A stretch of DNA of 64,000 nucleotides from Escherichia coli. GTDB lineage: Bacteria > Pseudomonadota > Gammaproteobacteria > Enterobacterales > Enterobacteriaceae. Positions 56,263-63,596 of this stretch are shown here, one piece after another. A program made the translations under genes and the position numbers. The notes under the pieces were generated by a model that worked only from the letters and a program-made list of their open reading frames with translations, was not told the DNA's origin and ran no database searches. Every line of letters begins with the position of its first letter. The first letter of the stretch is position 1. The stretch is from the NCBI RefSeq assembly GCF_024223415.1, contig NZ_CP100500.1. One strand, written 5' to 3'.

Positions 56263-59239
56263 TCCGTGATGAATATCATGTTATTGTTAATGCCAGCGAA
56301 TGTGGCGTTGAATATCCGTTGCGCCGGTCCGGGTCCCGATCATGATGACCGGGACCACAGAGAGGCGATGGTTCTGTCAGAAGGTCACATTCAGCGTGGC
56401 CTGACCGTTATAGCCTTCAGCGCTGCTGCCGCTGACGCTGTGGACATAACCTGCCTGAACGCCCAGGGTGATATTTTCCCGGACACGGGCTTCCAGTCCG
56501 GCCTGCAGGTCCAGTGACGTACCATTCTGTGACGGTGAGAACGTCATGTTACTGCCGGCTGCGGCTGTACCCATGCTCATGTCCCCCCGGGAGCTGAAGG
56601 TGCGGATAACAGAAGGCTGTACCCACCAGTTCACCGGCAGTTCACGCACACTGTGTTTGGCACTGCCGCGCAGGGTGTCACGGGATGAGGTGCCTTTACC
56701 AAAGTTCATATCGTTGTGGCTGCCCAGACGGAAGCCGGCACGCACATGTTGTGCACTGCCATGCCCGAACTTCACATAACCGGCGTTATCCTGGCCGTCA
56801 TCCAGGGAGAGTCCCTGCCAGGTGTACTGCAGTTGCGGCTCCAGCATCAGATTGTCAGTGATACTGAAGGGCAGACCGGTTTCCAGCGAACCCAGCCAGC
56901 CCCAGCCCCGGGCGCGGAAGTCGTTATTGTCCGATGAGGCTTTCATGCTGTGGCGGGTTCCCTGGGCCACAATGTCAGCCCACAGGCCGGAGGCGTTGTG
57001 TATCAGATTCAGGTATCCGCCCAGGCTGCCGGCATCATCCCGGACCGTGCCGGCACGGGAGCCGTCATCATCCTTAACATCAACGGAAGAATGGCCAGCA
57101 GCACCATATACCCCCGCGGTCACAGACATACCGGCAACCTCTGTTCTGAGCAGGTCACCCTCCAGACGGACGAAGCCATAGCTGCCGCTGCTTTCCGGCG
57201 TGGCTCCACGGGCAATACCGCCGTTGTTATCGTGACCGAGATGACCGCCCTGAATGCTGAGACGGACGCTGTTATTTTCACCGCTTACACCGGTCTGATG
57301 GCTGCGGGAGCCTGCCAGAATCCGGTCATAGTCCATTGCCTGTGTCAGCATGGAGGCATACAGGGGGACTTCTTCACGATAAGCATTTTCACTGCGCAGA
57401 TACCAGCTCTCATCACTGTCCCGGTTGAGGGAGTAGTTAAAGGCACCGGCCTGCAGCTTATTCCCCTGGACAAAGGCCCCTTCCTCCGTGGTGGCACCGT
57501 TAATGGCTTCCACCACCTGAATACCCTTACCGCTGGTCGCCAGCCCCGACGCACTGTTGCCGGCGTTCACCAGGTTCAGGATGGTTTTTCCGGTTGCCCT
57601 GCCACCGTCAATGACCAGTCTGTCAGCATTGTTCTGTGCCATATCCGGGCGTACACGCAGGCTGATGGTGCCATTCTGTCCGTTCAGGTTTTTCACTTTC
57701 AGGGTTGCCGGTACGAACTTCCCTGTGCGGGTGGAGGTGAAATGAATCTGTCCGGCATGGCTGAGGTCATCCACCACCGACTGCACCGTGGCGTTATCGG
57801 GAATATTCCAGGTGGCACCAGAGGCGAGAGTGACATTCGTGGGGTCAATGGCACCGTTCAGCACAGTGCTGCCGGTCAGCTTCAGGGCTGTACCGCGCTG
57901 AGCAATGACATCCGTGGTGACGGTACTGTCGTTCAGCGTCAGCGTGCCTTCATTCAGGTTGACGGCTTTCTGGGTGAGTGTGGTGTTGCTGACAGTGAGT
58001 GTGCCACTTCCTGATTTTTCCACGCTGCCGTTACCGGTGAGAGAGCCTCCCTGCAGGAGTGCATCGCCTTCACGGATGGTCAGGGTATCGTTGTTCACCG
58101 TCTTCCCGGAAAGGGTAAGTATGGCGCCGTTATTCAGCGTGGTGGTGCCCGCCAGTGTGCCGCCCCTGGCGGTGAACAGTCCGATTTACCGTGGTATCCG
58201 TGGCCGTATCACCGGCGTTCAGCGTGAATGAACTGCCTTTTTCCAGCATCAGGGCATCCGCCTGACCGCCTCCGATACTGAATGCCTTTCCGTCGCTCCG
58301 GGTACCACTGACAGCGGCACCGGAATCGGCCAGCAGTACACCGCCATTTCCCATGGATACGGTGGTGGCGGTGCCACCGTTGCGGACATCCAGCGTTCCG
58401 CCATCATCCACGCGGGTATTAGTGGCTGTGTGTCCGGTCAGCACATCCAGGCGTCCGCCATTTTCCAGTACGACATTATCAGCTTTACCCTCCACAACAG
58501 AGAATGCTCCCAGGCGGTTTATGCCGGTAACGGTTGCAGCCGTACTGGTAACCAGTGCGCCGCCCTGCTTCAGGGTGACATTCGTGGCTGTACCACCGGC
58601 GTCCACCTGCAGTCTGCCCTTCTGATTAACGGTGGTATTCCCGGCCACACCCCCGTTTTTGACAATCTGCCAGCCGTCACTGTTTACAACAGTGCCAGAC
58701 GCCGTACCGCCGTTGTGCACATACTGGTACCCCCCATTCAGCGTGGTATCCAGTGCGTGACCATGTACAGTCTGGTCGCCGCCGGCATAAACCACAGTGG
58801 TATTTGCCGTTCCTTCAGCAGCCACAATCTGACGACCATTTTTATTGATGGTGGTGCGTACGGCATCTCCGTAGACGGTCTGCCCGGTATCACCATTTTC
58901 CGCATCCGGTCCCCCTTCCGCGCCGGTATTCACAACCGTGTCGGTTGCCACTGCGCCGGATTTGATGGCCTGCCAGCCCTTCTCATTAATGACGGTACCC
59001 GTTGCAATCCCGTCTTCATGTACCCACTGCTCACCGCCGTTCAGAGTGGTGTTCACTGCCTGCCCCTGAAGGCTCTGTCCGCCTCCGGCACTGATAACCG
59101 TGTCTGAAACGCTTCCTCCGGCATTCACTCTCTGAAGACCACCACCGGTGACAGTAGTGTTGTTGGCGGTACCGCCATTTTGTATCCATTGGCCGCCGGT
59201 ATGTAAGCGTACAGCGAGGGCCGTATTGACGGGGATGTG

Positions 59240-60778
59240 TTATTCAGCTGGCAGTGCTATGCGCCACGGAAGCAGTTCGCTGACCCGGTTGACCGGCCAG
59301 TCTGCTATGACGCCAAGCACATGGCGAAGGTAGCTTTCTGGATCCACGTCATTCAGTTTGCACGTCCCTATCAGGCTGTACAGTAGCGCTCCCCGCTCAC
59401 CACCATGGCCAGAGCCGAAGAACAGGAAGTTTTTACGACCCAGACTTACCGCCCGCAGGGCATTTTCAGCGATGTTGTTGTCGATTTCCACCCAGCCATC
59501 GTTCGCATAGTACGTCAGTGCCGGCCACTGGTTAAGTGCGTACGCGAACGCCTTCGCCAACTCTGAGTGTCGCGACAGGGTCTTCATCTTTTCACGCAAC
59601 CAGCTTTCCAGGGATTTCAACAGCGGTTTCGTTTTTCGCTGACGTTCAGCAAGCCGCTGCTCTGCCGGCATTCCCCTTATATCCGCCTCTATGGCGTACA
59701 ACTGACCGATCTGCTCCAGGGCTTCTTCCGTCAGTGCTGACGGGATGCGGACGTGCACATCGTGGATCTTTCGGCGGGCATGAGCCCAGCAGGCAGCTTC
59801 CGTTATCCCACCATTGCGATACAGCTCGTTGAACCCGGCGTACGCATCCGCTTGCAGCACACCGCTGAAGCAAGCAAGATGAGTCTGCGGATGGATGCCT
59901 TTTCTGTCCGGGCTGTAAGCGAACCACACTGCAGGTGCCAACGCTGACCCGGCATTGCGGTCATCACGAACATACGCCCACAACCGCCCGGTCTTCGTCT
60001 TCTTATTACCCGGCATCAGTACCTGGACCGGGGTATCATCGGCATGGAGTTTGCCGTCAGTCATGACATAGCCATGAAGCGCCTCTTCCAGCGGAGACAG
60101 CAGCCGGCAGCATGCATCCACCCAGCCCGACAGCAGTGAACGGCTCAGCTCCACACCTTGCCGGCCGTATATTTCTGACTGGCGATACAGCGGGGTGTGC
60201 TCTGCATACTTCGAGGTCAGCACGCGGGCCAGCAGCCCCGGTCCGGCGATACCCCGCTCGATGGGCCGCGAAGGTGCAGGTGCCTGCACGATGGCATCGC
60301 ACTGAGTACAGGCATGTTTTTCCCGTACCGTCCGGATAACCCGGAAGGCGCTACGCATCAACTCCAGCTGTTCGGCGGTATCCTCGCCCAGATAGCTCAG
60401 TGAACCGCCGCAGTTCGGGCAGCACGGCGCCGCAGGCAACAGTCGCTTTTCGTCACGGGGTAGTGATTCAGGGAACGGCTTACGGATGCGGGTCTGACGC
60501 AACGGACGCTGTACTGCCGGGTCATACACCCTACCAGTCAGCGTATCGCTCTCTTTCTGAAGCTGGTTCAGATCGGCTTCCATTTGTGCGATACGGCGGG
60601 AGACTTTTTCGGAACGACTGCCGAAGTTCATCCGGCGGAGTTTATCCAGCTGCGCCTGCAGATGGTCTATTTCGCGCTCCCGGTTGCTCAGCTTTTCCTG
60701 CAGGGCGTGGATCAGCGCTTCCTGTTCGGCCAGGCGCTGTTTCAGCAGGAAGATGTCGTCAGAAGAGATGTCGTTCAT
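59240..60778 (-). CDS. IS66-family transposase TnpC (512 aa)
   Basis: Leucine-zipper-like N-terminus, Cys cluster (CPNCGG...CTQC) and DDE-type core, the usual IS66 transposase layout. Confidence 0.8.
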
Positions 60779-63054: not shown

Positions 63055-63596
63055 CTGAAACTGTCCAGGTTTTGGGGTTCAGTTCATTGGCCTCGTTATC
63101 CGGCCCATACTCCAGCCCGGTACTGATGGTCATTCCGTTGGCCGTACCGAAGACAATCTGGTTGTCATGATTTGTCAGTGTTCCGTCGTTCACGGTTTCT
63201 CCCGCCTGTACAACCGTGTCAGCAGCCAGTGCCGGGACTGATGTGACAGCAGCAAGAGACAGCGCAACCGCCACACCGGCGCGTTTTCCCCGTGAGCGGG
63301 CCAGTTCGGAGGCCACCACCAGGGTGCCCGTAATGTGATTCCATACCAGCCTGTAGCTGGTGTTCAGATGTCGTTTCATCAGCTTTTCCTTACAGAGGGT
63401 GAATAAAAAAGCCGGTACCCACAGATGTGGGTACCGGCAGGTACAAAACAGCATGGTCAGATAAAGTGGTTTTTCCCGGACATAAATGTTTCCCCTCTCT
63501 CATCCGCCAGAGAAGCATCAGTCCGTTGTGTGCAATTCCGTTCTGCATGATGAAGAGATTCAGCTGCCTTTTCGCAGACCATTAACCACTATAAAC

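Follow-up and report, generated by a model that had tools for sequence, protein, structure and literature searches.

Two insertion sequences in the flu gene

The window, i.e., the entire analysed stretch of 64,000 nucleotides from Escherichia coli, carries flu (agn43), a dispensable, phase-variable adhesin gene of this species, on an island ~50–64 kb from dnaA; neither selC nor any tRNA gene was found within the window as island border. The gene is split into a 3' and a 5' part by (i) ISEc8 of the IS66 family and (ii) IS1397 of the IS3 family (Table 1). The first-pass annotation had described two elements 2 bp apart, each with a duplication of its own, and this arrangement is confirmed directly in the sequence, which reads ...TTGGCC GCCGGTAT / GTAAGCGTACAGC at the left, ...CTGTACGCTTAC / GCCGGTAT TG / TGAACTGCACCCCAAA at the middle and ...TTTGGGGTTCAGTTCA / TTG GCCTCGTTATCC at the right junction. 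Only the start of the IS66-family element had been placed 1 nt early (59202 instead of 59203). T61652 is common to both duplications (1-nt overlap), and TG at 61653–61654 constitutes the 2 bp separating the ISEc8 duplication from IS1397. A 4-bp duplication for IS1397 was also tested against the flanks and does not fit (ATTG versus TTGG).

Table 1. Features of the doubly interrupted flu locus (positions refer to the window)
Feature	Position	Strand	Remarks
flu (agn43), 3' part	56377..59202	-	ORF from ~nucleotide 294 to stop codon; from alignment and translation
2-bp deletion in flu (frameshift)	58183..58184	-	coding strand AAT[GG]CGGACTG; from global alignment to L004
ISEc8 target-site duplication, left copy (GCCGGTAT, 8 bp)	59195..59202	+	
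ISEc8 (IS66 family), 2442 bp	59203..61644	-	
ISEc8 tnpC	59240-60778	-	
ISEc8 tnpB	60828-61175	-	
ISEc8 tnpA	61172-61573	-	mechanical GTG ORF, 133 aa; 381 nt in RefSeq on other ISEc8 copies
ISEc8 target-site duplication, right copy (GCCGGTAT)	61645..61652	+	doubles as left arm of the PU-like IS1397 target
IS1397 target-site duplication, left copy (TTG, 3 bp)	61652..61654	+	
IS1397 (IS3 family), 1432 bp	61655..63086	+	
IS1397 orfAB	61706-63054	+	
IS1397 target-site duplication, right copy (TTG)	63087..63089	+	
flu, 5' part	63087..63379	-	start codon 63379-63377, ~97 codons (MKRHLNTSYRL...GPDNEAN); CDS limits from annotation of L004
TTATCCGGCC, exact canonical PU/REP arm	63096..63105	+	6 nt past the TTG duplication

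Removal in silico of ISEc8 and IS1397, each along with one of its two repeat copies, yields ...GCCGCCGGTATTGGCCTCG..., which translates as ...GPDNEANTGGQW.... Alignment of this junction to intact agn43, a check proposed in the first-pass annotation, revealed base-for-base identity (strain FDAARGOS_1058). Over 3266 bp, the reconstructed gene shares 99.9 % identity with annotated intact agn43 (at least 25 genomes), this full-length collinear identity assigning it to Antigen 43; two SNPs and the 2-bp deletion are the only differences. Chance matching of flanks would have a probability of ~1.5e-5 for 8 bp and 1/64 for 3 bp, which becomes irrelevant in view of the exact reconstruction. Since each element is flanked by a duplication typical of its family (8 bp and 3 bp, respectively) and no flu bases were lost or added, the supposed independence and cleanness of the two transpositions holds true: the insertions are two separate cut-and-ligate events with staggered-cut duplications of 8 bp and 3 bp.

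The Ag43 reading frame, assumed to be restored upon excision, is so locally at the junction but not across the whole gene, since the 2-bp deletion leads to loss of frame at ...TVN/GGLFT and to a stop in translation. Thus, flu would stay a pseudogene even without both IS elements. The listed top matches to a 100-bp query over the deletion span 102 bp at 98.0 % identity, and among the matches listed 1 of 2361 matching records reaches at least 99 %; judged from these listed matches, the deletion appears private to this flu. The gene was struck three times in this lineage (ISEc8, IS1397 and the 2-bp deletion); agn43 is intact in the closest relatives (99.5–99.6 % identical over 23 kb).

The two elements and their target sites

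ISEc8 possesses 22-nt inverted repeats starting with GTAAGCG (59203–59224 and 61623–61644), which together with the consecutive genes tnpA, tnpB and tnpC and the 8-bp duplication define it as a member of the IS66 family. Its products match the NCBIfam models IS66 TnpA (97 bits, cut-off 74), IS66_TnpB (120 bits, cut-off 50) and transpos_IS66 (457 bits for the DDE transposase TnpC, cut-off 180). The element is 100.0 % identical to RefSeq-annotated ISEc8 copies of other strains (H37, H40) and agrees in length, genes, repeats and size of the duplication with ISEc8 in general, which is widespread on E. coli chromosomes and plasmids (e.g., pO157). Duplications of 8 bp were also observed for the ISEc8 copies L002, L003, L012 and L013 as well as for an IS66-family relative (L001); the comparison copy L011 has none.

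A literature search on target sites of ISEc8 retrieved nothing relevant. In a sample of 64 unique duplications out of 120 metagenome loci, the ISEc8 duplications are AT-rich (33 % GC), with merely four containing five or more G/C, providing a first rough target profile of AT-rich octamers with the weak consensus G-A-W-T-A-W-W-N. The octamer in flu exceeds 60 of the 64 sampled duplications in GC content, and its position weight matrix (PWM) score corresponds to the 16th percentile among real duplications. Relative to other flu positions, the site ranks at the 95th percentile, or at the 98.5th if IS1397 was already present. The target preference of ISEc8 is weak and AT-biased and leaves its position in flu unexplained. 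Right flanks of ISEc8 resembling GCCGGTAT (H18, H17 and H31) turned out to belong to the duplications GGCCGATT and ATCGGTAT or to mismatched flanks; as these copies were chosen by BLAST ranking, they represent no consensus evidence.

The first-pass annotation overlooked that the IS3-family element is the REP/PU-specific IS1397 and that its site in flu is PU-like. Membership in the IS3 family is indicated by the 25-nt inverted repeats TGAACTG...CAGTTCA (61655–61679 and 63062–63086), the -1 frameshifted orfA/orfB arrangement and a duplication in the range of 3–4 bp. An A6 run at 62201–62206 probably connects the two frames by a -1 frameshift, and the NCBIfam model transpos_IS3 matches orfA with 54 bits and orfB, encoding the DDE integrase-core transposase, with 325 bits. 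NCTC9112 and GPEC1446 contain copies that match the element at all 1432 positions and carry the RefSeq annotation "IS1397 family transposase, programmed frameshift". The element is present in ~1718 genomes and nearly lacking on plasmids (6 of 13,692 places; no full-length copy on plasmid-sized records), consistent with a strong target restriction.

According to a passage in PMC1525189 (citing Clement 1999, Wilde 2001 and 2003), IS1397 specifically inserts into REP/PU sequences, and REP-like sequences serve several IS families as targets. The target rule applied here combines this secondary citation with our own sample of 14 distinct E. coli sites besides flu, seven of them from a ranking by flank similarity and seven from a flank-free spread listing (8 of 12 full-length rows). 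All 14 sites are intergenic and display at least one arm GCCGGAT, ATCCGGC or a one-base variant; duplications of 3–4 bp are present at 13 of them (none at L015 of NCTC9112), and the element occurs in both orientations. A contig scan with degenerate IS1397 inverted repeats mostly yielded unrelated IS3-family elements of other phyla and one true extra site (E. albertii), adding nothing to the target statistics.

The site in flu reads GCCGGTA/TTG/GCCTCGTTATCCGGCC, with one PU arm perfect and the second near-perfect. Here, the codons for GPDNEANTGG spell GCCGGTA-TTG-GCCTCG-TTATCCGGCC-CATAC, in which the right arm of a PU is perfect and followed by its tail, and the left arm nearly perfect. TTATCCGGCC occurs exactly twice in the window, the other copy being part of a true PU (6114–6123), and the same arm is found at equal spacing beside natural IS1397 copies. 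The pattern GCCGG-N6-24-ATCCGGC, defined after the flu site had been seen, is present in the reconstructed window at this true PU (6115–6144) and at the flu site but nowhere else (shuffle mean 0.155); for a stricter arm pattern 0.03 occurrences are expected. Moreover, BLAST alignments of other IS1397 copies continue for 26–34 nt into the flanking flu sequence, at either end of the IS.

The target nevertheless differs from the PU/REP sequences of BIMEs, with which, as far as described in PMC1525189, it has in common the element, a duplication of 3–4 bp and placement between inverted GCCGGAT/ATCCGGC-type arms, besides the TTATCCGGCC arm spacing of natural sites. PU arms are present around the insertion (GCCGGTAT ... 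TTATCCGGCC), yet the site is intragenic, the left arm is imperfect due to an extra T, the inner stem is missing and the hairpin is weak. Compared to a REP/PU, which is an extragenic imperfect palindrome of ~35 nt with a stable stem and recurs in BIMEs, the site proved to be coding and to possess only a 5-bp outer stem; its DNA fold amounts to -5.3 kcal/mol (z = -0.6), and its core to -3.9 as compared to -9.2 and -10.6 kcal/mol in real targets. It is a PU mimic and no PU proper. Similar degeneracy exists at some natural IS1397 sites, namely a single arm (L265), a degenerate arm with a fold of -6.0 kcal/mol (L263) and the short GCCGGA/TGAG/CCACGTCATCCGGC (L016). flu of K-12 contains the identical 26 bp, and thousands of genomes carry this segment without interruption; none of the ~1718 IS1397 carriers has the element at this site, marking it as a weak target at best. 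Literature on IS1397 together with antigen 43 was searched without relevant results.

Recency, order and origin of the adjacency

Among 5426 complete E. coli genomes, neither junction was found, nor IS1397 at the flu site in either orientation, nor ISEc8 at this flu position. The 240-bp empty site matches 3982 genomes (3422 with at least 80 % coverage), and an evenly spread sample of 60 matching records shows no alignment break at the site. Hence, the suggested local insertion hot spot finds no support, as independent insertions in different lineages were not detected. Recent serial insertions, the other suggestion made from the first reading, fit the data: 100 % identity to copies elsewhere implies that both insertions are recent, and the junctions are absent from the 5426 genomes. 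A second copy of ISEc8 or IS1397 was not found within the window. With respect to the order of insertions, duplications, left-arm context and folding provided no discriminating feature; since the ISEc8 duplication regenerates the GCCGGTAT left arm beside the IS1397 site, either order yields the observed sequence.

Starting from the established anatomy, element identities, exact reconstruction, uniqueness of the arrangement and target resemblance, the best explanation (probability about 0.6) is PU-mimic targeting of IS1397 combined with a fortuitous ISEc8 adjacency, without a general hot spot. The REP/PU preference of the IS1397 transposase would have directed the insertion to the PU-like flu codons, where the element sits mid-palindrome exactly as at real PUs; we infer that the resemblance was the cause, which would account for IS1397 at this very spot. 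ISEc8 may have fallen by chance on the octamer that serves as left arm, in a dispensable gene possibly dead already upon its arrival. Given ISEc8 in flu, adjacency with duplications touching has a probability of only ~0.2–0.3 % (uniform or PWM-weighted). Coincidence is still most likely, a choice made chiefly because no evidence points to a link, and a local effect behind the adjacency is conceivable.

Such an effect could consist in one insertion having promoted the other, which we regard as rather unlikely. IS1397 might have been present first, its end (possibly transposase-bound or distorted) attracting ISEc8; alternatively, a resident ISEc8 would have enabled the weak PU-like site for IS1397 (e.g., by transcription stop or topology). 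In line with this are the rarity of a 2-bp adjacency even with both elements in flu, the rise in ISEc8 PWM percentile with IS1397 resident, the fact that IS1397 never used the flu site where ISEc8 is missing there, and an IS66-family element 278 bp from an IS1397 copy in strain UID2309220033. However, in this orientation the right end of ISEc8 and the left end of IS1397 do not approach each other to ~600 bp or less in any of the 5426 genomes, none of the 120 metagenome ISEc8 loci contains IS1397 ends, and hairpin and left-arm context are not bettered by the ISEc8 end. To our knowledge, no coupling of this kind has been described for the IS66 family. In a more specific and unlikely version, the GPDNEANTGG codons, kept in the K-12 allele, represent a cryptic half-PU usable by IS1397 only near altered DNA such as the ISEc8 end 2 bp off, or else the IS1397 end attracts ISEc8. 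If true, an insertion would potentiate a second one almost at base-pair distance, and an IS considered "strictly extragenic" could be diverted into a gene.

A true local hot spot is likewise unlikely. One may envisage that the TATT patch between GC-rich arms, or a GCCGG...CCGGC cruciform, opens the DNA to unrelated transposases, two of which have indeed cut within 10 bp at a site that, as an ISEc8 target, ranks within the top 5 % of flu positions; that several IS families target REP-like sequences (passage in PMC1525189) would agree with this. The site is uninterrupted in every other genome examined, though, the hairpin at best equals that of shuffled sequence, and ISEc8 flanks lack PU association (one PU-like arm seen by eye in 98 listed flanks, not a systematic count). 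In addition, ISEc8 resides elsewhere in Ag43 of other strains, and apparent "same site" cases of ISEc8 beside Ag43 from a broad megablast in many genomes represent spurious joins or the start-codon insertion.

Pure chance for both the adjacency and the IS1397 position, with the PU resemblance being irrelevant, is improbable. The weak hairpin, the imperfect left arm and the empty site in 1718 IS1397-bearing genomes would be compatible with it, but a PU arm exists at all 14 other IS1397 sites, and by our own estimate the probability that an exact arm of the ATCCGGC type lies no more than ~14 nt from a random point is ~0.5 %, and far lower if TTATCCGGCC together with GCCGG is demanded. A rearrangement, insertion of both elements as one composite, or misassembly is highly improbable. 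Apart from adjacent repeats being a classic spot for assembly errors, nothing speaks for it; both duplications are intact, one per element, and their nesting is that expected from two separate staggered cuts. Bases of flu were neither lost nor gained, and a single composite insertion would give one duplication around the pair.

Relation to known insertions and implications

Disruption of flu by ISEc8 is shared with the IS-inactivated agn43 of LR-31 and at least nine other genomes. In these LR-31-type alleles, a single element is inserted at the start codon with the duplication CTTCATTA and the allele recurs in several genomes, contrasting the private double insertion described here. Piling up of unrelated IS elements in dispensable DNA is also common to clustered or nested IS elements of islands and plasmids, and ISEc8 elsewhere adjoins fragments of IS1, IS3-family elements, ISEc39 and ISEc48. 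In the present case, neither element is interrupted, both reside in a host gene and their duplications overlap by 1 nt.

The locus combines known elements and ordinary gene decay, the twist being the use of an intragenic PU look-alike by IS1397. This element is regarded as limited to intergenic REP/PU repeats; its location within a coding sequence is apparently a rare case, with no other among the sites examined. For the cell, the insertions are of little consequence, as flu, with its three lesions, is a dispensable gene. The doubly occupied site constitutes a private, recent marker of possible use in strain typing. For IS1397, targeting of the PU mimic would mean that a target needs no more than one perfect and one partial arm, suggesting that the arm sequences may suffice for targeting even where no stable hairpin exists.

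The doubly interrupted flu allele

The window represents the opening 64 kb of the E. coli chromosome, starting from dnaA; the closest genomes share 99.5-99.6% identity across 23 kb (~430 bp offset when numbered from dnaA). The two elements in flu (agn43, 58% GC) are (i) ISEc8, whose genes match the NCBIfam models for IS66 TnpA, TnpB and transposase (all above cut-off) and which is 100.0% identical to RefSeq-annotated ISEc8 copies (H37 and H40 in the match listings), and (ii) IS1397, identical at 1432/1432 positions to copies annotated as IS1397 with programmed frameshift. This confirms the first-pass annotation of two elements in flu, with correct coordinates apart from the ISEc8 start, which is 59203 rather than 59202.

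Features of the flu locus and of the REP/PU sequence in the same window
Feature	Coordinates	Strand	Description
flu (agn43)	start codon 63379-63377, stop 56377	minus	interrupted by two elements
ISEc8	59203-61644 (2442 bp)		22-nt inverted repeats, three genes
IS1397	61655-63086 (1432 bp)		25-nt TG...CA inverted repeats, IS3-family orfA and orfB
SNPs versus FDAARGOS_1058	56705, 57374		
2-bp deletion in flu	58183-58184		coding strand AAT[GG]CGGACTG
GATC sites	63597, 63610, 63629 (region 63597-63632)		upstream of broken flu
BIME/PU (GCCGGATGCGGCGTGAACGCCTTATCCGGC)	6063-6144		downstream of gyrB
Genuine PU	6115-6144		GCCGG-N6-24-ATCCGGC

The left junction reads ...TTGGCC GCCGGTAT / GTAAGCGTACAGC..., the stretch between the elements ...CTGTACGCTTAC / GCCGGTAT TG / TGAACTGCACCCCAAA..., and the right junction ...TTTGGGGTTCAGTTCA / TTG GCCTCGTTATCCGGCC.... 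When both elements are removed in silico along with a single GCCGGTAT copy and a single TTG copy, a 3266-bp allele results; at least 25 genomes carry an annotated intact agn43 to which it is 99.9% identical. In a global alignment its junction is perfectly identical to that of agn43 in strain FDAARGOS_1058; the insertion site is therefore free of deleted or extra bases, and the two events are simple transpositions. The earlier view of two independent, recent and clean insertions is supported.

The four differences from FDAARGOS_1058 overall comprise two SNPs and a 2-bp deletion ~1 kb downstream of the IS pair. The deletion causes a frameshift after ...DTATDTTVN with a stop 17 codons on, and flu therefore carries three lesions. 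Thus, removal of the elements restores the Ag43 reading frame locally at the junction, as had been claimed, but the frame is shifted elsewhere by this overlooked lesion. The top matches listed for the 100-bp deletion segment cover 102 bp at 98.0% identity and lack the deletion, which on these alignments appears private; the listing shows a single record, out of 2361 that matched, with >=99% identity.

Upstream of the broken gene, the flu phase-variation switch is intact, its three GATC sites having the usual Dam/OxyR arrangement. In the search for an attachment site of the flu-bearing island, ARAGORN detected no tRNA gene in the whole 64 kb, and the selC sequence used as query is absent from the window.

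An intragenic mimic of the REP/PU target

IS1397 is reported to insert specifically into REP/PU sequences, as stated in PMC1525189 with reference to the primary papers. For comparison, 14 distinct IS1397 sites were sampled, seven from matches ranked by flank similarity and seven from a flank-free spread listing (8 of 12 full-length rows). All 14 are intergenic, with IS1397 in both orientations and located between or beside arms of the GCCGGAT / ATCCGGC type; 13 display duplications of 3-4 bp, the locus of NCTC9112 (L015) having none. Examples are GCCGGATGCGACGC / TGGC / GCGTCTTATCCAGCCTAC, GCCTGATGCGACGC / TGAT / AGCGTCTTATCAGGCCTAC and GCCGGA / TGAG / CCACGTCATCCGGC. In the reconstructed flu site, GCCGGTA / TTG / GCCTCGTTATCCGGCCCATAC, one arm matches TTATCCGGCC exactly and is spaced as usual, there is a TAC-like tail, and the left arm is longer by a single T. 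Alignments with other IS1397 copies continue beyond either IS end for 26-34 nt of flu flank. In the reconstructed window, GCCGG-N6-24-ATCCGGC is found only at the genuine PU and the flu site (shuffle mean 0.155; a stricter PU-like pattern is expected 0.03 times), and these also harbour the only two exact copies of TTATCCGGCC. New relative to the first-pass annotation is the insight that the IS3-family element is IS1397 and that the coding sequence in which it sits mimics its REP/PU target.

The fold of the flu site is weak (-5.3 kcal/mol, z = -0.6; core -3.9 versus -9.2 and -10.6 for real IS1397 targets), and equally poor natural sites are known from three retrieved loci (L265, single arm; L263, degenerate arm, -6.0; L261, -7.1). 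K-12 flu contains the same 26 bp, and since no occupancy was seen elsewhere, the site is considered a weak target. The canonical target downstream of gyrB is empty, while the weak flu mimic is filled.

Order, age and adjacency of the insertions

Since the ISEc8 duplication re-creates GCCGGTAT directly left of the IS1397 site, either order of insertion yields the observed sequence, and in either case IS1397 would find the PU-like arms unbroken. As each element has identical copies elsewhere and no other genome shares either junction, both insertions are recent, as had been suggested.

A metagenome scan requiring both ISEc8 ends provided 120 loci with 64 unique duplications, which are AT-rich (33% GC versus 42.5% in the adjoining 22 nt) and share a weak consensus (G-A-W-T-A-W-W-N), with five or more G/C in 4/64. 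Among these, GCCGGTAT scores at the 16th percentile; with flanks, the site ranks in the top 5% of flu positions (top 1.5% with IS1397 already there). The probability of an ISEc8 insertion in flu touching the IS1397 duplication is 0.2-0.3% (uniform or PWM-weighted model), and ISEc8 preference therefore fails to explain the adjacency. None of 5426 complete E. coli genomes has the ISEc8 right end less than ~600 bp from the IS1397 left end in this orientation, and the metagenome ISEc8 loci contain no IS1397 end. A PU association of ISEc8 flanks is not evident (one PU-like arm by eye in 98 listed flanks, no systematic count), and hairpin and arm context are not improved by the ISEc8 end. Since no systematic link was found, the adjacency is taken as coincidence in dispensable DNA; at 1-in-400, this leaves room for a local effect.

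The proposed local insertion hot spot is not supported, since none of the 5426 genomes covers >=80% of any junction-spanning query (flu/ISEc8, ISEc8/IS1397, IS1397/flu or in-silico reversed IS1397), and the empty site (240-bp query, >=80% covered in 3422 genomes) shows no alignment break among 60 records sampled at even spacing. All closest relatives have intact agn43, and ISEc8 in Ag43 of other strains occupies a different position, the start codon (duplication CTTCATTA). The flu position is no hot spot at population level, and the double insertion is private and recent.

The start-codon arrangement, exemplified by E. coli LR-31 (locus L002, 3276-5733; also H5-H14), occurs in at least 10 genomes from human and poultry sources. 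A second IS66/IS1397 neighbourhood is present in UID2309220033 (locus L001, 3001-7165), with IS1397 in a PU downstream of ubiG and an IS66-family relative 278 bp off in the autotransporter gene yfaL (duplication CATGAACA; 93.8% identity for a joined match including an IS1397 piece).

Wider distribution of the elements

IS1397 is almost exclusively chromosomal (plasmid places, 6/13,692; "plasmid" records with full copies only of 0.7-4.9 Mb), in contrast to ISEc8 with ~10% of places on plasmids. In roughly half of the E. coli genomes, including some of K-12-like size and coordinates (e.g., near 258 kb), IS1397 is represented only by a solitary 65-nt right-end fragment at a conserved chromosomal position (H221-H231), which looks like an ancient remnant.

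In a contig scan (L137-L256), the inverted repeat TGAACTGCACCCCAAAAGTTGGACA was common to IS3-family elements of Neisseria, Bacteroides, Burkholderia, Proteus, Bacilli and others, typically flanked by an A-run and half a GC-rich, terminator-like hairpin; the Neisseria flank, GGTCGTCTGAAA, resembles the DNA uptake sequence. This whole IS3 subgroup may target intergenic hairpins. The flu locus represents a new instance of known elements acting largely as known.
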